A DNA stretch of 12,176 bases from an archaeon (GTDB lineage: Archaea; Undinarchaeota; CAZHTU01; JBDRCC01): positions 1-12,176 of the forward strand of contig JBDRCC010000015.1 in NCBI GenBank assembly GCA_043822065.1. Direction: 5' to 3'. Each line of letters begins with the position of its first letter. The first letter of the stretch is position 1. Below the pieces are notes generated by a model. The model saw nothing but the letters and a program-made list of their open reading frames with translations, had not been told where the DNA came from and did no database searches. Shown here in pieces: positions 1,991-11,423 of this stretch. A program made the position numbers and the translations under genes.

Positions 1991-2011
1991 TAGTTGTACC
2001 ATAGTTACAGC

Positions 2012-2779
2012 ATGCCGGCAGGATATGTTGTAGTACTAGCTTTCGTAATCGCGCTTCTGGCGGTTGCGTTCAAGATAAAGGACTATCTAGTAGAGTTCAA
2101 GGAGTACGAAAGGGCGGTGGTCTTCCGCTTCGGCAGGTTCAACCGGGTAGCCGGCCCGGGATGGGTCCTCATCCTGCCAGTCATCGAGAAGTACACCAAA
2201 TACGACCTCAGGACGCACACAGTCGACGTCCCGCCCCAGATGGTAATCACCAAGGACGGCATCGAGCTGAGGATTGACGCAGTTGTTTATATCCGTGTCA
2301 TAGACCCGAAGAAGGCGGAATTGTTCGTTGAGGAGGACTACAGGTTTGCGGTCGAGGAGTTCATCAAGGGCAAGATAAGGAACATAATAGGCAGGATGGA
2401 GCTGAGCGACGTCTACGGCAGGATAACCGACCTGAACGAAATTCTCTGCGAGTCCGCAAGGAACATCTCCCAAAACTGGGGTGTCGAAATCGAGGACGTG
2501 GAGCTCCAGGGGGTTCAGCCGCCGGCTGACGTCGTCGACGCCCTGAAGGCGCAAGAGATTGCCGAGAGGCAGAAGCTCGCGGCGATAGAGCGGGCTGAGG
2601 CGCTCAAGATAAAGATTGACGCAATACAGAAGTCTGCGGGGCAGCTGAATGACAAGGCGCTCGCATACCTTTACATGCAGAGCCTTGAGAAGATTGCCGC
2701 TGGGCCTGCGAACAAGATAATATTCCCGCTTGAGTTCACAAAGCTCGCCGAGAGGCTGGTGTCTGGGAAAAAGGATTAA
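2012..2779 (+). CDS. SPFH/band-7 domain protein (stomatin/prohibitin family)
   Basis: There is an N-terminal TM helix (GYVVVLAFVIALLAVAF). After it comes the characteristic SPFH core: EYERAVVFRFGR...GPGWVLILPVIE...DLRTHTVDVPPQMVITKDGIELRIDAVVYIRVIDP. A C-terminal coiled-coil-like region is rich in AEALKIKIDAIQK. The six-frame track begins at TTG 1994. I prefer ATG 2012 because of the TATA box at -26 and the hydrophobic N-terminus that follows directly. Confidence 0.9.
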   Translation: MPAGYVVVLAFVIALLAVAFKIKDYLVEFKEYERAVVFRFGRFNRVAGPGWVLILPVIEKYTKYDLRTHTVDVPPQMVITKDGIELRIDAVVYIRVIDPKKAELFVEEDYRFAVEEFIKGKIRNIIGRMELSDVYGRITDLNEILCESARNISQNWGVEIEDVELQGVQPPADVVDALKAQEIAERQKLAAIERAEALKIKIDAIQKSAGQLNDKALAYLYMQSLEKIAAGPANKIIFPLEFTKLAERLVSGKKD

Positions 2780-2780
2780 G

Positions 2781-3815
2781 ATGGTATTTGAGAGCGTGCT
2801 TAGCCCTGAAACGGCGGAGAACAAGCCATATGACGCATTCATCCTGAGCTTCCTGCTTTCTACAATATCGATAATGCTGGCGTTCATCGTCTTCACCCCG
2901 TACATTGTGGTGAACACGGTGCTTTCAGCCTACACTATTTTTTTCATCGGGATCGTGCTGTTCATCGTCGAGGGGAAGCGGTCCTTTTCAAAGACGCTTT
3001 TCACGCTCACCCTGCTGGCGGTAGTCACGATAATATTCATAACAAACATACAGGGCAAGATACTCGCCCTCGACTATTCAGCATACGCGACATCGGTCTC
3101 GCTTTCGATGATATTCTTCACCTCGCTCGGGCTTGCGCCGCTCATGGTGAGGCTGCTCCAGGTAGAGGAGCGCAGGGACATTGAAGATCTTGAGGATACT
3201 TTCCTTGAGAGGCATTACCACGTGCTCCTGGCTTACGCCGCGCTGTTTGTTGGCGCAGTTTTCGCGTATTCGCTCTGGTTCACGATACTGCCGGAGTCGC
3301 TTGTGGAGACGATATTCAGCGAGCAGCTGAGCACGATAAGGTGGGTGTCCGGGCTGAGGATGGGCCTTACGGCGCAGGTAATCGGCGGGCAGAGCTTTGG
3401 GCTGATACTTAACAACAACCTGAAGATACTCGCAGTCTCGGCGCTGATGTCGTTTGCGCTTGGCTCGGGTGCGATATTCATACTCACCTGGAACGCGTCA
3501 GTGATAGCCGTCGCGATAGGCGACACCGCAAGGACCTTCATCTCGTATTATGCAGGGATGGGGCACTTCGCAGGGGTGGCCGCTTACTTCCATGCCCTCC
3601 CGATTTCGCTTTCGAGGCTGCTTTTCCACGGGAGCATAGAGATACTAGCCTACTTCATTGGAGGGCTCGCGGGCGGAATTCTGTCGGTGGCGGCGATCGC
3701 CCACGAGGGCGCAGCGATATGGCTTGTGATAAAGGATGCGACAAAGCTGCTTGCCTTTTCGGTTTTCCTGATAGTGGTTGCCGCAGCCATTGAGGCGGCG
3801 ATGATAGGGGTATGA
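2781..3815 (+). CDS. Polytopic membrane protein, DUF95/SpoIIM-like family (tentative)
   Basis: There are about 8 predicted TM segments. The motif LILNNNLKILAVSALMSFALGSGAIFILTWNASVIAVAIGD resembles the conserved NxLK...(about 23 aa)...NG/WN signature of stage II sporulation protein M / DUF95 proteins. I recalled this from memory and did not search it. The ATG at 2781 lies 2 nt after the SPFH stop, with AAGGA 5 nt upstream. The upstream in-frame extension from 2730 overlaps the SPFH gene, so I rejected it. Confidence 0.5.
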   Translation: MVFESVLSPETAENKPYDAFILSFLLSTISIMLAFIVFTPYIVVNTVLSAYTIFFIGIVLFIVEGKRSFSKTLFTLTLLAVVTIIFITNIQGKILALDYSAYATSVSLSMIFFTSLGLAPLMVRLLQVEERRDIEDLEDTFLERHYHVLLAYAALFVGAVFAYSLWFTILPESLVETIFSEQLSTIRWVSGLRMGLTAQVIGGQSFGLILNNNLKILAVSALMSFALGSGAIFILTWNASVIAVAIGDTARTFISYYAGMGHFAGVAAYFHALPISLSRLLFHGSIEILAYFIGGLAGGILSVAAIAHEGAAIWLVIKDATKLLAFSVFLIVVAAAIEAAMIGV

Positions 3816-4591
3816 CGAGGATAATAGGCATAACAAGCGGAAAGGGAGGCGTGGGGAAGACGACCACGACTGTGAACCTTGCAACCGCGCTGACCGCGCT
3901 CGACAAGAGCGTGATAATTGTCGACGCGAACCTGACCACCCCGAACATAGGGCTCCACTTGGGGATGCCGCTGTCCGGAGTTACGCTTCACGACGTCCTC
4001 GACGGGGATGCGTTCATAACCGAAGCCATAACGATACACCCCTCGACGGGAGTCAGGGTCGTGCCCGCCGGCCTGAACATAGACAACCTCAACAGGCTCA
4101 ACTACAACATGCTCGGGAGCACCATATTCGACCTGCTCGGATACGCGGACTTCATCCTTGTGGACTGCCCGGCCGGGCTTGACGTCGGCTCCCAGAAGGT
4201 AATACAGGCGTGCGAAGAGGTGCTGATAGTCACGAACCCCGAACTGCCCGCAGTCACGGACGCGCTCAAGGCGAAAAAGTTCGCCGAGACGAACGCGCAT
4301 GTCCTCGGCATAGTCCTGAACAAGGTGCGGCACGTCAAAAGCGAGATGACCGTGTCCGAAATAGAGCAGATTATCGAATCGCCCGTTGCAGTCATCGTGC
4401 CGCACGATGACAGGGTCCAGGAGTCAATATCAAAGAAAGTCCCCCTGCTTGAGCTTGCGCCGAACAGCCCGGCAAGCAAGGAGTGGAGGCGGCTTGCCCG
4501 CCTGATAGAGGGCTTAGAGTTTGAGGATGTCCTGCCGTCCGACATCGGCGGGATGAAACGGTTCTTTGCAAAGCTGTTCAGAAGGGGATAG
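3812..4591 (+). CDS. MinD/ParA-family P-loop ATPase (archaeal MinD-like) with C-terminal amphipathic membrane-targeting helix
   Basis: A deviant Walker A motif GKGGVGKTT sits at the N-terminus (IIGITSGKGGVGKTTTTVNLA). A Walker B-like VDCPAG is present. The C-terminus GGMKRFFAKLFRRG is a short basic amphipathic helix, as in bacterial MinD membrane-targeting sequences. The ATG overlaps the upstream stop (ATGA). Confidence 0.85.
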   Translation: MTRIIGITSGKGGVGKTTTTVNLATALTALDKSVIIVDANLTTPNIGLHLGMPLSGVTLHDVLDGDAFITEAITIHPSTGVRVVPAGLNIDNLNRLNYNMLGSTIFDLLGYADFILVDCPAGLDVGSQKVIQACEEVLIVTNPELPAVTDALKAKKFAETNAHVLGIVLNKVRHVKSEMTVSEIEQIIESPVAVIVPHDDRVQESISKKVPLLELAPNSPASKEWRRLARLIEGLEFEDVLPSDIGGMKRFFAKLFRRG

Positions 4592-6196
4592 TCAGTAAGC
4601 CAGCTCAAAAACGGCGACTGGGTATTCTATTCCAAGATTGTCAAGCACCTGCGGGTGTATCTCGCCGATTTTTCCATACATGTTTCCGGCTTTTATCTCA
4701 GCCACCCTCCCTGGGATGTAGGACTGGTCGTCCGCCGGGCTTATGGAGGAAATTTCCATGCCAAGCTCGTGCGCAAGGGACTCGGCGTAGGCGCGGATTG
4801 ACGTATAGCTTGCAAACTCCGAGGCGCACACCGCGGCAACCGCGCGCTTTGGCATTTCTTCTCCGAGGGACGCATAGCCAACCTCGAAGAACATCTGAGG
4901 CAGCTCGTAGCGGGAGTTTGTCTTGACTACTTCAAGGAGGTGCGGCAGGATGCTGCTCCTGAACTGGGTGAAGTCCGAAGTCCTCGGGTTTGAGATTACG
5001 ACCTCCGGCGCCTCGGGCTTTAGCATGCGCTGGAACTGCTTATCAGGATTCGACAGGTAAAAGGAGAAGCATTCGTAAAACCCAAATCCGGTCATGATTT
5101 CCCTAATCTTCGCGTTGAGCAGGCTTTCATCGGTCTGCCTGCCTGTTGTCGCAGTGTCTGAAATCTGCGGCTGGAAGCTTGCGTAGCCGTAGGCGATTGC
5201 AATCTCCTCGACCAAGTCCATGGGATGGAGGATGTCGGTCCTGTACGGCGGGATTTCAACGGATACCACTTTTGAGCCTGACGCGCCGAAGCGCATTTTC
5301 CTGAGCAGGCGGGAGATTTCTGCGCCTGTCAGCTCTATTCCAAGGAGGCTGTTGCAGTATGCCGGGTCAAGCCCCATCTTTCTTGTCTGCAGGAACGGCG
5401 TATATTCCTTTCCGACCTTGACGGACTCCACCTTGAATCCCCTGTCGAGGAATGATGCGCAGTAGATGTTAAGCGCCTGGTGCGCGGCACGCAGGTCCCA
5501 GCTGTCGATGTCCAAGAAGATTGTCTTAGTATCCTCCGTAACCTTCGAGTCCTCTGAGTTCACTATCGGCGGGAAGGAAAGGATGGTTCCCTTGCTGTCG
5601 ATTATTATCGGGTACTTCCTGTACGGCTTCAGCAGGTCAGCAAACTGCTGGCCCTTTGGGTGCTCCGCGAGAATCTCGCTTAGCGTCATTTTTCCCGACA
5701 TCCCAAGCGGGACAAAGGAGATTGAATCCGGGTCGACCGCCATGTACCTGAACGGCGGCTTTACCTTGTCCAAGTCGTGGAAGCCGCTCGCTAGCTTCTT
5801 CCTCCGCCTGCCCATGGTGTCGTTTATCTTCTCCTGGAACTGCATCATTGAAGCGACGACAGGGTCGGTGAGCTTGACATTTCGTATAACTGCGGCAAGG
5901 AAATGCGGGCGCACGTCCTTGACTGACTTGTCGACGGTGACCTCGACGTTTCCTTTTGGAATCTTGTACTGGACCGGGCCGGTTTCTACGTTCAGGAAAC
6001 CGGCAACCGCCCTTGCAAACCCCTCTATGGACAGCATGTCCGGGCGGTTTGGGAATATCTCAACAGTCAGGAGGTCCGGGGTCAGGTGCTCCACAGGAGT
6101 GCCTAAAAGTGGAAGAACGTCCTGGATGTCCTTGTCGGTCAGCTTCTTCCCGACCAGCTTTTCAAGGTCCTTCCTGCCGTACTCAAGGACTGCCAT
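4592..6196 (-). CDS. pheT: Phenylalanine--tRNA ligase beta subunit, archaeal/eukaryotic type
   Basis: The 534-aa product has the length and domain order of archaeal PheT: B3/B4-like and B5-like regions, then a C-terminal catalytic-like fold (…GKIGEIHPQVLDNLGIEYPVAVFELAY). It is convergent with minD, with no intergenic spacer. Confidence 0.88.
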   Translation of the reverse strand: MAVLEYGRKDLEKLVGKKLTDKDIQDVLPLLGTPVEHLTPDLLTVEIFPNRPDMLSIEGFARAVAGFLNVETGPVQYKIPKGNVEVTVDKSVKDVRPHFLAAVIRNVKLTDPVVASMMQFQEKINDTMGRRRKKLASGFHDLDKVKPPFRYMAVDPDSISFVPLGMSGKMTLSEILAEHPKGQQFADLLKPYRKYPIIIDSKGTILSFPPIVNSEDSKVTEDTKTIFLDIDSWDLRAAHQALNIYCASFLDRGFKVESVKVGKEYTPFLQTRKMGLDPAYCNSLLGIELTGAEISRLLRKMRFGASGSKVVSVEIPPYRTDILHPMDLVEEIAIAYGYASFQPQISDTATTGRQTDESLLNAKIREIMTGFGFYECFSFYLSNPDKQFQRMLKPEAPEVVISNPRTSDFTQFRSSILPHLLEVVKTNSRYELPQMFFEVGYASLGEEMPKRAVAAVCASEFASYTSIRAYAESLAHELGMEISSISPADDQSYIPGRVAEIKAGNMYGKIGEIHPQVLDNLGIEYPVAVFELAY

Positions 6197-6202
6197 AGGA
6201 AG

Positions 6203-6231
6203 TTATATGTAATACCTGTTTTTATATTATG
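6203..6231. promoter_or_regulatory. Bidirectional AT-rich promoter region with two TATA-like boxes (ttatatgtaata; tttttatattat) serving divergent pheT and the small ORF at 6234
   Basis: Each box is about 25-28 nt from the start codon of the gene it faces (6196 on the - strand, 6234 on the + strand). This is the same geometry seen at the other promoters in the window, consistent with leaderless transcripts. Confidence 0.35.
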
Positions 6232-6233
6232 TC

Positions 6234-6467: not shown

Positions 6468-9143
6468 ATGGCAGACGACAAAGAAAACCCAACGATTGAG
6501 CTGAGGGTAGCCAAGGCAATGCCCGAGGATGCGGAGCGGGGCATAGTCAGGATAGACTCAAAGGCGACGAAGATGGTAGGCGTCGCGGTGGGGGACATAG
6601 TCGAGATAATCGGTGGAAGGACAACGGCCGCGATAGTCGAAAGGGCTTACCCAAGCGATGTTGGCCTTGGCGTCATAAGGATGGACGGGCTCATAAGGAA
6701 GAACGCGGAGACGGGCATAGGGGAAAGTGTCAAGGTCAAGAAAGCGGAAATCTTTGAAGCGAAAAAGGTGGTAATCGCACCGACACAGGAGCTCGGCGGG
6801 CAGCTAGTCGTCCAGGGGATTGAGCGGCTGCTTATCGGACGGCCTTTTGTCAAAGGGGACATACTCGCACCCATACAGAGGCGCGGCGGGGGCATAGACA
6901 TAAACAGCCTCTTCAGCGAGTCGTTCGGGCTGCCCATATTCGGCGGCGGAATTGGCGGAATAAAATTCGTAGTTGCAAGCACCCAGCCGAAGGGCGTGGT
7001 AATAGTCACTGACGTGACTGAGATTGAGGTCAGCCAGCAGGCTGCGGTTATAAAAGATGAGAAGCTCCCTGACGTAACTTACGAGGACATTGGCGGGCTG
7101 AGGGATGAGATAAAGAAAGTCCGCGAGATGATAGAGATACCACTCAAGCACCCAGAGGTATTCGAGAGGCTCGGCGTCGAGCCGCCGAAAGGCGTGCTTT
7201 TGTACGGCCCGCCTGGAACAGGAAAGACGCTTCTTGCGAAGGCGGTTGCAAACGAGACTAATGCCAACTTTATCCTCATAAATGGCCCGGAAATAATGTC
7301 GAAGTTCTACGGCGAGTCGGAGAAGCAGATAAGGGACATATTCGACAATGCGCAGAAGAATGCGCCGAGCATAATATTCATCGATGAGCTGGACTCAATC
7401 GCCCCGAAGAGGGAGGAGGTAACCGGTGAGGTCGAGAGGCGGGTTGTCGCCCAGCTGCTTTCCCTGATGGACGGCCTCCAAGCGAGGGGGCGGGTAATAG
7501 TCATAGGCGCGACGAACAGGCCGGAGGCGCTCGACGTTGCACTCAGGAGACCGGGGAGGTTTGACAGGGAGATAGAGATTGGCGTGCCAGACCGCGACGA
7601 CAGGAAAGAGGTTCTCCAGATACACACGAGGAGGATGCCGCTTGGTTGGGAACAAATCAAGACGTATGTAGCGCCATATCTATTAGAACTGCAAAAAATT
7701 TCGAGAATCGATGATAATACAATACATATCAGCGCTAAGATTGGCATTGACACAGATGGGTCTATGAAAATGCCAGGGGGAGATCTATTCTTTTATGCTA
7801 AAGATTTGAACGAAAAGTATTCTGCCATTGATAAGTATTCTACAACGGTTCCTAAGGAGGGTATATTAGAAGTGGGTAAATCAAAAAAACTCCCCCACGA
7901 GGACTATATTCGATTTAAAAATTCCCAGTTCACAGATGGAGAAACGTATGCAATCGACTATTGGATTAAAGCTAAACGCGGGGCGTCTATTATATTTGGT
8001 TGGGGCACTACATCTAGCTCGACCACGATAAGTATCGGTAATGAGATTGACCTCGACGCCCTTGCGGACATAACCTATGGGTATGTTGGTGCAGATCTGG
8101 CAGCGCTCACGAAAGAAGCCGCGATGGCGACGCTGAGACGGGTTATGGAGAAGGGCGAGTTCAAGCTCGACGAGAAGGGGGGAGCGATACCGCCGGAGAC
8201 CCTGAAGAAGCTAATAGTCGAAAAGAAGGACTTTGACGAAGGAAGGCGGCTTGTCGAGCCGTCAGCCATGAGGGAGGTCCTGTTCAGGAAGCCAACCACT
8301 ACCTGGGATGACATCGGTGGATTGGAAGAGGTCAAGGCCCAGCTCAAGGAGACTGTGGAATGGCCACTCGAGGATCCGGAGTCGTTCAAGAGGCTCGGGA
8401 TAAAGCCGCCGAAGGGCGTCCTGCTGTTCGGGCCGCCGGGGACGGGAAAGACGCTCCTTGCGAAGGCTGTCGCGAACGAAAGCGACGCAAACTTCATTTC
8501 AGTGAAAGGGCCTGAGCTCATCTCAAAGTGGGTAGGCGAGTCCGAGAAGCACGTCAGGCAGATATTCAAGAAGGCGCGGCAGGTTGCGCCCACGATAATA
8601 TTCTTCGACGAGCTGGACTCAATCGCCCCGAAGCGCGGCTCGGAGATTGGGGTTAAGGTCGGAGAGAGGATAGTCGACCAGCTGCTGACAGAGATGGACG
8701 GCATGGAGGAGCTTGAGGGAGTCATAGTCATAGGCGCGACAAACCGCCCGGACATAATAGACCCTGGGCTGCTGAGGCCGGGACGGTTTGACAGGCACAT
8801 ACTGACGCCAGTCCCGGACAAAGCTGGAAGGCTCAAGATATTTGAGGTGCACACCAAGAACATGCCGCTCGACAAGTCAGTCGGCCTGAAAAAGCTCGCG
8901 GATATGACTGACGGGTACGTCGGCGCTGACATTGAGGCGCTGTGCCGCGAGGCTGCGATGAACGCGTTAAGGATTGACAAGAAGGCAAACAAGGTCGACA
9001 TGAACGACTTTGAGGTCGCATTCACCCATGTCAACCCGACGATGACAGAGGGGATGAAGCACAATTATGAGGGCATACTTAAGGACTTCACGACCCGGGC
9101 AAGCATCAAACTAGATAAGGATGTAACCAGGTACTTAGGATAA
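6468..9143 (+). CDS. cdc48: CDC48/VCP/VAT-type double-ring AAA+ ATPase carrying an atypical ~132-aa in-frame insertion in the D1 lid subdomain
   Basis: The N-domain resembles Thermoplasma VAT ([22 protein letters not shown]). D1 has Walker [14 protein letters not shown], Walker B IIFIDELD and second region of homology (SRH) [26 protein letters not shown]2 has a second [21 protein letters not shown] and [21 protein letters not shown]. Between D1 ...IHTRRMPLG and [19 protein letters not shown] there are about 132 extra residues that the equivalent D2 segment ([28 protein letters not shown]) lacks. Confidence 0.9.
7647..8042 (+). other. In-frame, compositionally foreign (AT-rich) insertion within cdc48 D1 (approximately [14 protein letters not shown]...[15 protein letters not shown])
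   Basis: GC drops abruptly. A hand count gives about 32% over 7651-7700 against about 57% over 7611-7650. Codon choice shifts to AT3 codons (aaa, gat, tat, att, tct). There are no in-frame stops. No intein blocks are present: no N-terminal Cys/Ser, no terminal HN. The insert ends in a Ser/Thr-rich linker. The 9-mer ttggttggg occurs at the left junction (7642-7650) and again at 7996-8004. Confidence 0.7.
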
Positions 9144-10528: not shown

Positions 10529-11423
10529 ATTGCACGCCTTTCCTTGACAATTGCCCCTTTAGCTTGGGATCCTTTAGTAGTTTTTCTATCTGCGAGCGGA
10601 ACTCCTGCGGGGAGTCTGCAAACAATGCCCTTCCATCAGCAAGCTCCTTCGCCGCGCCCCTGGGGCGGCAGATTACGGGCAGGCCGCACGCCATCGCCTC
10701 TAAAATCGTGAGCCCGAAGCCCTCCCATTCCGAGGTCGAGATGAGGCAGTCTGCAGATTTCATATAGCTGTAAACCTGTTCAGGCGGAAGGGCTCCAAGC
10801 TTTATGCCGCCGAGCCGGCTTGCAAGCGGACCGCCCCCTATTATGTAGAAGTTGCAGTCCGGTGAGATTATATCCTGCAGGAAGCTGACCTTTTCCCTGA
10901 CAAGATTACCGACAAAGAGGACCGCCGGCATGCGTATCCGTATCGGCTTTGCCTTTCGGATTTCCGCTGCGTCGATGCCGTTCGGGATTACTTTGGCATG
11001 TAGCCCCCATTTTTTGAGCTCGTCCGCCAGGAACTGGCTGACCGCAATCACTTTTGCGCGCCTGCAGACTATTTTTTTGAGCTGGTTGAGCAGGCTGGCT
11101 TTCATGACGTCTGAGCCGTGGACTGTCAAAACGAGCTTTTTTCCTGTGAAGGCTGAGAGAAGCATTCCCAGAAAGCCGGCGGGGAGGATGAAATGGGCGT
11201 GTATTATGTCCGGCTTTTCCTTCCGGATGCAGTAAAGCCCGTAAAAAAAGCCGGCGATGGCGAATGACAGAGCGCGCAGGACTGGAATGTTTATTATGGG
11301 AACTGTATAGTCGCCGTCGGAGGCGTATGTAAAGGTAATAACATGGTTTTTTGAATATTTCTTAAGGTAGTGGACATGCCTTGCTATTCCCCCTGACAGC
11401 TTTCCTATTAGAAGAACTTTCAT
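10467..11423 (-). CDS. Glycosyltransferase family 4 (GT-B fold, retaining GT1-like)
   Basis: The C-terminal domain carries the E-x7-E signature EGFGLTILEAMACGLPVI. The N-terminal Rossmann-like domain reads MKVLLIGKLSGGIARHVHYL. The start overlaps the upstream ORF's stop (ATGA). The 3' end overlaps the map start by 62 nt. Confidence 0.85.
   Translation of the reverse strand: MKVLLIGKLSGGIARHVHYLKKYSKNHVITFTYASDGDYTVPIINIPVLRALSFAIAGFFYGLYCIRKEKPDIIHAHFILPAGFLGMLLSAFTGKKLVLTVHGSDVMKASLLNQLKKIVCRRAKVIAVSQFLADELKKWGLHAKVIPNGIDAAEIRKAKPIRIRMPAVLFVGNLVREKVSFLQDIISPDCNFYIIGGGPLASRLGGIKLGALPPEQVYSYMKSADCLISTSEWEGFGLTILEAMACGLPVICRPRGAAKELADGRALFADSPQEFRSQIEKLLKDPKLKGQLSRKGVQYAGKFDWKETARRTDQLYEV

Follow-up and report, generated by a model that had tools for sequence, protein, structure and literature searches.

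Introduction

Bacterial MinCDE, FlhG, MipZ, BcsQ and ParC are P-loop positioning ATPases of the ParA/MinD family that act with membrane or landmark partners, and a membrane-targeting sequence (MTS) is common to bacterial and archaeal MinD. In Haloferax volcanii, the targets of MinD4 and MinD2 are the motility machinery and cell shape. The MTS is needed for MinD4 function (10.1101/2020.04.03.021790), the four MinD proteins of this organism are without effect on division-site placement, and two 2026 preprints attribute divisome positioning in Haloferax to the GTPase oscillator Dip/Arco (PMC13228585; 10.64898/2026.07.23.738820). The SpoIIM family (arCOG01994) was described by Makarova et al. as ancestral in archaea (PMC5898192); its genes mostly stand alone, at times accompanied by arCOG02177, now AliA (PMC5898192, PMC12462473), its predicted role is in the remodeling of membranes or the formation of vesicles, and no link to either MinD or stomatin was reported (PMC5898192). 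As for the stomatin-type proteins of the SPFH superfamily, Hinderhofer et al. reported that 229 out of 353 SPFH1 genes share an operon with NfeD (PMC2636767). Here, we analyze an archaeal contig of 12,176 nucleotides (nt) (JBDRCC010000015.1, taken at its full length and referred to as the window), in which genes for a stomatin-type SPFH protein, a SpoIIM-like membrane protein and a MinD ATPase follow one another on the same strand (Table 1).

This triad is a lineage-specific operon of one small DPANN-like group, and not a widespread new module. Within this group, we tentatively favor a real functional connection, above all of MinD with an insertion-bearing form of the SpoIIM-like protein, with the stomatin co-expressed in the same clade-restricted operon, because the gene block survives rearrangements of its flanks and because the insertion co-occurs with linkage to MinD. 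All three gene families are already annotated in the database (as SPFH domain-containing protein, stage II sporulation protein M and cell division ATPase MinD, respectively), and the gene order, in an uncultured clade, is the only new element.

Table 1. Coordinates of the triad, its motifs and its immediate surroundings in the window
Feature	Coordinates	Strand	Basis or remarks
Putative archaeal TATA box TTTATAA	1982..1988	+	23 nt before SPFH ATG
Stomatin-type SPFH/Band_7 protein, 255 aa	2012..2779	+	SPFH domain residues 30-198
SpoIIM/DUF95-family (PF01944, arCOG01994-like) polytopic membrane protein, 344 aa	2781..3815	+	Pfam
Clade-specific ~60-residue insertion, two extra transmembrane helices, roughly residues 39-100	2895..3080	+	Alignment, hydropathy, AlphaFold2
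Core motifs of SpoIIM-like protein, NNLK (residues 212-215) and ILTWNAS (residues 234-240)	3414..3500	+	88-sequence alignment
Archaeal-type MinD ATPase, 259 aa	3812..4591	+	Start overlaps SpoIIM-like stop
Deviant Walker A GKGGVGKTT, residues 10-18, signature lysine K11	3839..3865	+	Invariant in 29 orthologs
C-terminal basic amphipathic helix MKRFFAKLFRRG, residues 248-259	4553..4588	+	Candidate membrane-targeting sequence
pheT (phenylalanyl-tRNA synthetase beta subunit)	4592..6196	-	Pfam B5, tRNA_synthFbeta; convergent with MinD, zero intergenic bases

Results and Discussion

Conservation of the Triad within One Clade

The three open reading frames (ORFs) of the triad were correctly located in an initial annotation of the window, which also rightly recognized their operon-like coupling. 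Of the two junctions that it described, the 4-nt overlap between the SpoIIM-like gene and MinD is borne out (ATGA, 3812-3815), while the gap between the SPFH and SpoIIM-like genes is 1 nt (TAA-g-ATG) instead of 2 nt. Such tight spacing implies that the three genes are probably co-transcribed.

The same order and strand, SPFH-(NUDIX)-SpoIIM-MinD, is found at seven distinct loci, namely, the window, L166, L001, L003, L086, L167 and L168, of which L086 was added by a metagenome scan with the clade alignment. The window and L166 have the three genes alone, and in the other five loci a NUDIX gene lies between the SPFH and SpoIIM-like genes. Identity to the window proteins across the clade loci amounts to 66-91% for SPFH, 53-81% for SpoIIM, 58-79% for MinD, and 46-50% for PheT where the latter is present. 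The spacing between the SpoIIM-like gene and MinD over the seven loci is -4, -4, +4, -1, +39, +38 and +237 nt, the last of these belonging to L003.

The surroundings of this block fall into four unrelated contexts upstream and into three classes downstream, the first with pheT (window, L167 and L168), the second common to L001 and L086, and the third in L003, and in several pairs of loci the triad block is the sole common segment. This bears directly on the alternative that the gene order is an inherited juxtaposition without shared function, in which three independent housekeeping membrane proteins have stayed together in a compact genome because too few rearrangements have fallen within a stretch of 2.6-3.3 kb. 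We consider this explanation the main rival and quite possible, and return below to the observations that speak for it; however, the block is intact under all of these flanking contexts at a PheT identity of 46-50%, L001, L003 and L086 have dropped the pheT neighbor yet retain the SpoIIM-MinD junction, and the overlapping or nearly overlapping start and stop codons are preserved in most loci. That the block stays intact while its flanks change argues for selection on co-expression, and this is our main argument for a functional link.

The NUDIX gene occupies positions 5642-6034 in L001, 5621-6019 in L003, 1061-1453 in L086, 3530-3904 in L167 and 93-464 in L168. It overlaps the start of the SpoIIM-like gene in L001, L003, L086 and L167, usually by 11-34 nt, and ends 26 nt before it in L168; in L003, a gap of 128 nt follows the SPFH gene. 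No remnant of a NUDIX gene was found in the window, and the gene is absent from L166 as well. We also note a 2.1-kb contig binned as part of a Sulfurovum metagenome-assembled genome (MAG) (L006, 1-2132), which carries an archaeal NUDIX-SpoIIM-like pair with the NUDIX gene at 27-359. The 85-aa ORF that follows its SpoIIM-like gene shares its exact beginning with the clade MinD (MTRIIGITSGKGGVGKTT) and continues as an ArsA/Get3-like sequence, and the opposite strand holds a 125-aa ORF of no assigned identity. This contig is probably mis-binned, and possibly a chimeric assembly.

The SpoIIM-like Protein and Its Two-Helix Insertion

The middle gene had initially been described as encoding an ~345-aa protein of SpoIIM/DUF95 type with an NxLK...WN motif. 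Its product is 344 aa long, and the family assignment stands: the protein scores 29.5 bits with PF01944, above the gathering threshold of 26.9, all 88 of its aligned homologs match the family as well (best E 8.2e-19), and the motif residues of NNLK and TWN (236-238) are conserved, with N212, N213, I234, L235, W237 and N238 forming invariant columns in the alignment of 88 sequences. The AlphaFold2 (AF2) model built on this alignment (predicted local distance difference test, pLDDT, 89.7; predicted template modeling score, pTM, 0.89) consists of helices throughout, about 9-11 of which are of membrane length, and a conserved acidic cytoplasmic helix is located at residues ~126-146. No relatives were found in the PDB, whether searched by sequence or by fold.

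A distinctive feature of the protein is an insertion that sits after the first transmembrane helix and is modeled by AF2 as two helices spanning residues 42-64 and 69-94. As the number of inserted helices is even, the topology of the remaining protein would be kept. The insertion is without counterpart in the homologs from Woese-, Nano- and Altiarchaeota, and is carried by all close homologs (52-80% identity). At every locus that can be read, an insertion-bearing SpoIIM-like gene precedes MinD; the downstream ORF of L006 is ambiguous in this respect. This co-occurrence is the second reason for which we favor a functional link between the SpoIIM-like protein and MinD.

Gene Neighborhoods outside the Clade

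To place the clade loci in context, a further 159 SpoIIM-like loci from genomes and metagenomes were searched with the window SPFH and MinD proteins. Neither a MinD nor an SPFH gene adjoins the SpoIIM-like gene at any of them (0/159), and a weak ParA-like gene lies 6 kb away at one. An SPFH gene whose product is 27-33% identical to that of the window is found 3-6 kb downstream on the opposite strand in L051, L103, L105, L118, L126, L138 and L145, which may merely reflect shared synteny among related genomes. Instead, the gene directly downstream and on the same strand encodes the oligosaccharyltransferase STT3/AglB in 51 of the 125 loci that extend far enough downstream, an identity that Pfam confirmed in all six cases checked; in one further locus, an AglH-like gene of the GT4 family was found. 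These SpoIIM-STT3/AglB loci are of Woese-, Nano- and Pacearchaeota type and fall within L005-L165 (for example, L005 6001-9676, L009 2279-5758 and L067 7015-10462). The SpoIIM-like gene is linked to AglB, and thus to N-glycosylation, far more widely than to MinD; this link is not mentioned in the 2015 analysis of arCOG01994, where the genes are mostly stand-alone (PMC5898192), and may offer a better way to the function of the SpoIIM family. Tandem pairs of SpoIIM-like paralogs were seen at some Pace- and Woesearchaeota loci (L011 6749-8747; L044 2314-4111).

Turning to MinD, the convergent arrangement with pheT that is found in the window also occurs in L167, L168, L169 and L170. The MinD orthologs of L169 and L170, at ~50% identity, keep pheT-pheS and have just small unknown ORFs upstream, and the ortholog of L171 lies among ribosomal protein genes; SpoIIM and SPFH genes are absent near MinD in all three. 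The MinD-pheT pair is thus an older synteny than that of MinD with either SpoIIM or SPFH. In the case of SPFH, small ORFs come after the orthologs of 55-58% identity (L172-L174), once with a NUDIX gene among them (L172 7472-7900), and then the gene for threonyl-tRNA synthetase, and neither SpoIIM, MinD nor a Pfam-recognizable NfeD is found near these second-tier SPFH genes in any of the three loci. No convincing Pfam assignment resulted for the small ORFs beside these more distant SPFH and MinD genes. Accordingly, the recurrence in other genomes on which the initial annotation had made its proposal depend holds for all seven loci of one clade, five of them with NUDIX inserted, and is absent elsewhere, that is, from the 159 SpoIIM-like, three MinD and three SPFH loci.

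Several of these observations weigh against a functional link, and most of them are what inherited juxtaposition would lead one to expect. There is no linkage outside the clade, neither around the SpoIIM-like gene nor around the more distant MinD and SPFH genes, and the seven loci within it are phylogenetically non-independent. The MinD-pheT order is without plausible functional meaning, yet is conserved further than that of MinD and SpoIIM (L167-L170, with PheT 39-50% identical to that of the window), showing that inherited synteny alone can last in these genomes. Close packing is typical for the contig as a whole and is no distinction for the three genes: the coding share is ~95%, four of the eight same-strand junctions in the ORF listing are no more than 1 nt apart, and 4-nt overlaps also join unrelated-looking pairs (783-786 and 11420-11423), such that tight spacing alone does not single out the triad. 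In addition, the NUDIX gene interrupts the order in five of the seven loci, the MinD gene of L003, 237 nt past SpoIIM, may have a promoter of its own, and both the mostly stand-alone character of archaeal arCOG01994 genes (PMC5898192) and the absence of NfeD beside one-third of SPFH1 genes (PMC2636767) are compatible with unrelated neighbors.

MinD and Its C-Terminal Helix

The third gene product is a MinD of archaeal type, scoring 231.2 bits against a cut-off of 201.75 with TIGR01969 (minD_arch), and 127 bits, below the cut-off, with the bacterial model minD_bact. Its best match in the PDB is A. fulgidus MinD-1 (1hyq, E 4e-48), followed by Pyrococcus MinD (1ion and 1g3q), the three matches spanning E 1e-41 to 4e-48. 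The deviant Walker A motif pointed out in the initial annotation is present and invariant (Table 1).

The C-terminal tail had likewise been singled out as a membrane-targeting helix, with its loss in orthologs named as an observation that would speak against the proposal. No such loss was seen. For the segment MKRFFAKLFRR, the hydrophobic moment is 0.85-0.98 and the net charge +4, and the amphipathic pattern is kept in 12 of 12 clade orthologs, with ends such as LKRLFKRLFK or LKRFLRKILK, and ends such as VVRILRKLFG or FFSRILDWLRGK in more distant orthologs. Among 120 MinD homologs, scored by a 10-residue window within the last 18 residues, 77% of the tails reach a hydrophobic moment of at least 0.6, compared to 14% of internal control windows, and 82% are net positive. 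By analogy with bacterial MinD and with MinD4 of H. volcanii, the tail would bind the membrane.

The suggestion that such a MinD might stand in for a Min system in division placement has become less likely, as Haloferax uses Dip/Arco, and not its MinD paralogs, for this purpose (PMC13228585; 10.64898/2026.07.23.738820). This leaves open that the window MinD positions or regulates another membrane complex. No MinC- or MinE-like gene was found in the 12-kb contig or in the related loci.

The Stomatin-Type SPFH Protein

The product of the first gene matches PF01145 (Band_7/SPFH) in Pfam with an E value of 4.8e-39, and its hydropathy profile shows a single N-terminal hydrophobic anchor at residues ~4-26. 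Its best sequence matches in the PDB are stomatin cages (16-mers, E ~4e-31), QmcA and PH1511, and on account of these solved relatives, we assign it to the stomatin type. No NfeD gene was recognized by Pfam beside the SPFH gene in the window, in the seven clade loci or in the three second-tier SPFH loci; the neighbors in the window are a gene for a protein with thrombospondin type 3 (TSP3) repeats upstream and the SpoIIM-like gene downstream.

The initial annotation had read the SpoIIM-like protein as taking the place of NfeD beside SPFH. We do not support this reading, as NUDIX lies between the two genes in five of the seven loci. Furthermore, given that NfeD accompanies only 229 of 353 SPFH1 genes, stomatins without NfeD are common, and its absence implies no replacement partner.

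Expression and Possible Function of the Operon

An A/T-rich, TATA-like octamer is found at equal distance from the SPFH start codon in five of six clade loci (window, L001, L003, L086 and L167), L166 being the exception. The position of the TTTATAA box in the window suggests a single leaderless or near-leaderless transcript from the stomatin gene on, for which this box would serve as the promoter. In L003, the 237-nt spacer between SpoIIM and MinD (7048-7284) holds several hairpin-like repeats of G- and C-runs (ggggg...ccccc) and an A/T-rich stretch before MinD, which suggests a terminator or repeat element together with a separate MinD promoter.

Taking these observations together, we can outline how the favored link between MinD and the SpoIIM-like protein might have arisen and might operate. 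The operon would have been assembled in one lineage from an SPFH-(NUDIX) neighborhood, a SpoIIM-like gene of the kind linked to AglB in other DPANN archaea, and a MinD/pheT neighborhood, with the sub-lineage of the window subsequently being without the NUDIX gene. All three genes are most likely transcribed together, as one leaderless mRNA, from the putative TATA-box promoter just upstream of the stomatin gene. ATP-bound MinD dimers would then dock on the cytoplasmic face of the membrane through the C-terminal amphipathic helix and work with the co-translated SpoIIM-like protein, which may recruit MinD, or whose distribution MinD may control, in a membrane- or envelope-remodeling task, while the co-expressed stomatin would form an oligomeric membrane microdomain. 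What the sequences show directly are the gene identities, their coupling, the pattern of conservation and the conserved MinD tail, whereas co-transcription, membrane binding and any protein-protein contact among the three are inferred.

A more ambitious form of this scheme holds that MinD has gained the SpoIIM-family variant with two extra transmembrane helices as a dedicated membrane partner, as either landmark or cargo, with a stomatin scaffold co-expressed, and that this constitutes an undescribed archaeal system for the spatial organization of envelope remodeling, glycosylation or episymbiont cell-cell contact sites. We consider it unlikely that the scheme is correct in this full extent. 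Quite unlikely, in turn, is the single machine proposed in the initial annotation, in which a stomatin microdomain, the SpoIIM-like protein and MinD form one complex that replaces Min in the placement of division or envelope sites. It is true that all three proteins are membrane-associated, co-oriented and probably expressed from one transcript, that the triad is found in all seven clade loci, and that the MTS of MinD is conserved. However, NUDIX parts SPFH from SpoIIM in five of these loci and a 128-nt gap follows SPFH in L003, the linkage is found in no other lineage sampled, the window is without a MinC- or MinE-like gene, and those archaeal MinD proteins that have been studied do not place the divisome, a task performed in Haloferax by the GTPase oscillator (PMC13228585; 10.64898/2026.07.23.738820).

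If the pairing of MinD with the SpoIIM-like protein is functional, it would provide a first handle on the archaeal role of the ancient and widespread arCOG01994/SpoIIM family, a clue to the targets of short archaeal MinD proteins, division placement in Haloferax being the task of Dip/Arco, and a rare clue to membrane organization in DPANN archaea. Its practical value at present is that of a prioritized candidate pair for interaction tests.

Contig Setting and Further Features of the Window

The nearest named relatives are found in Woese-, Nano- and Altiarchaeota for the SpoIIM-like protein, in Undinarchaeales and Aenigmarchaeota for MinD, and in Diapherotrites and Micrarchaeota for SPFH, and these relatives point to a DPANN-like archaeon as the probable source. 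The guanine-cytosine (GC) content across positions 2001-4500 is 0.53-0.58, which is not atypical compared to 0.49-0.58 for the contig, and scans of the window with Rfam and for tRNA genes returned nothing, with integrases and repeats likewise not found.

These data also bear on whether the triad could be an anti-phage defense or mobile element cassette, which we regard as very improbable. SPFH proteins and P-loop ATPases do occur in some candidate defense systems, and the NUDIX protein of the relatives weakly matches the PADLOC candidate model PDC-S07 (E 2.4e-8), but PADLOC is without a match for either SPFH or SpoIIM and matches MinD at the P-loop level only, the neighbors are housekeeping genes (pheT, CDC48 and MetAP by Pfam), the GC content is ordinary, and no integrase, repeat or tRNA was found in the window. 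With PADLOC negative, housekeeping neighbors, ordinary GC and no marks of a mobile element found, we rejected this idea as effectively refuted.

Upstream of the triad, two genes at 19-786 and 783-1877 overlap each other. The former encodes a 255-aa protein without a family match, and the latter a probable surface protein of 364 aa that is rich in Cys and Asp and contains thrombospondin type 3 repeats; no homolog of either was seen in the flanks of the related loci. Downstream, a 37-nt spacer (6197-6233), A/T-rich and with TATA-like boxes in both directions, separates pheT from a divergent gene for a 61-aa membrane protein, and the gene order pheT-small ORF-CDC48 is common to the window and L168. 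The CDC48/VAT homolog (6468-9143) is 891 aa long and carries, between its D1 ATPase core and lid domain, an insertion of ~130-150 residues (roughly 7650-8050), which is without a Pfam match and coincides with the dip in GC content to 0.49.

Comparison with Known Systems

In comparison to the stomatin/NfeD operons (PH1511/PH1510, QmcA/YbbJ and SPFH1), the SPFH protein of the window is likewise of stomatin type with an N-terminal membrane anchor, and differs in that no NfeD gene, whether of OB-fold or ClpP-like type, adjoins it in the window or in the related loci examined. The SpoIIM-like protein shares PF01944, and with it the NN.K...WN and HG..E core, with B. subtilis SpoIIM of the DMP engulfment complex and with arCOG01994 (COG1300), but carries the two-helix insertion of its clade; moreover, the SpoIID and SpoIIP partners of the DMP complex are lacking in archaea (PMC5898192), and neither gene is in the window. 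The linkage known for archaeal arCOG01994 is to arCOG02177/AliA (PMC5898192, PMC12462473), to which the present analysis adds AglB in other DPANN archaea, and MinD is not among these known linkages.

The window MinD resembles the described archaeal MinD proteins (TIGR01969, with those of P. furiosus, P. horikoshii and A. fulgidus as well as MinD4 and MinD2 of H. volcanii) in scoring above the family cut-off and in its deviant Walker A motif, and it has an amphipathic C-terminal tail of the kind that MinD4 requires (10.1101/2020.04.03.021790). It differs from MinD4 in being short, at 259 aa, and without the long C-terminal extension, and from the described archaeal MinD proteins by its position in an operon with a SpoIIM-like gene, away from che or archaellum genes, and by its occurrence in a DPANN-like MAG, MinD having been reported by Nussbaum et al. 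from Euryarchaeota only. With respect to the bacterial ParA/MinD family, no polytopic SpoIIM-like protein is known as a partner, and neither MinC, MinE nor another known activator is present; however, the P-loop with its deviant Walker A motif and a C-terminal tail like the MTS of bacterial MinD are shared, and by this analogy the window MinD is a plausible ATP-dependent membrane switch.

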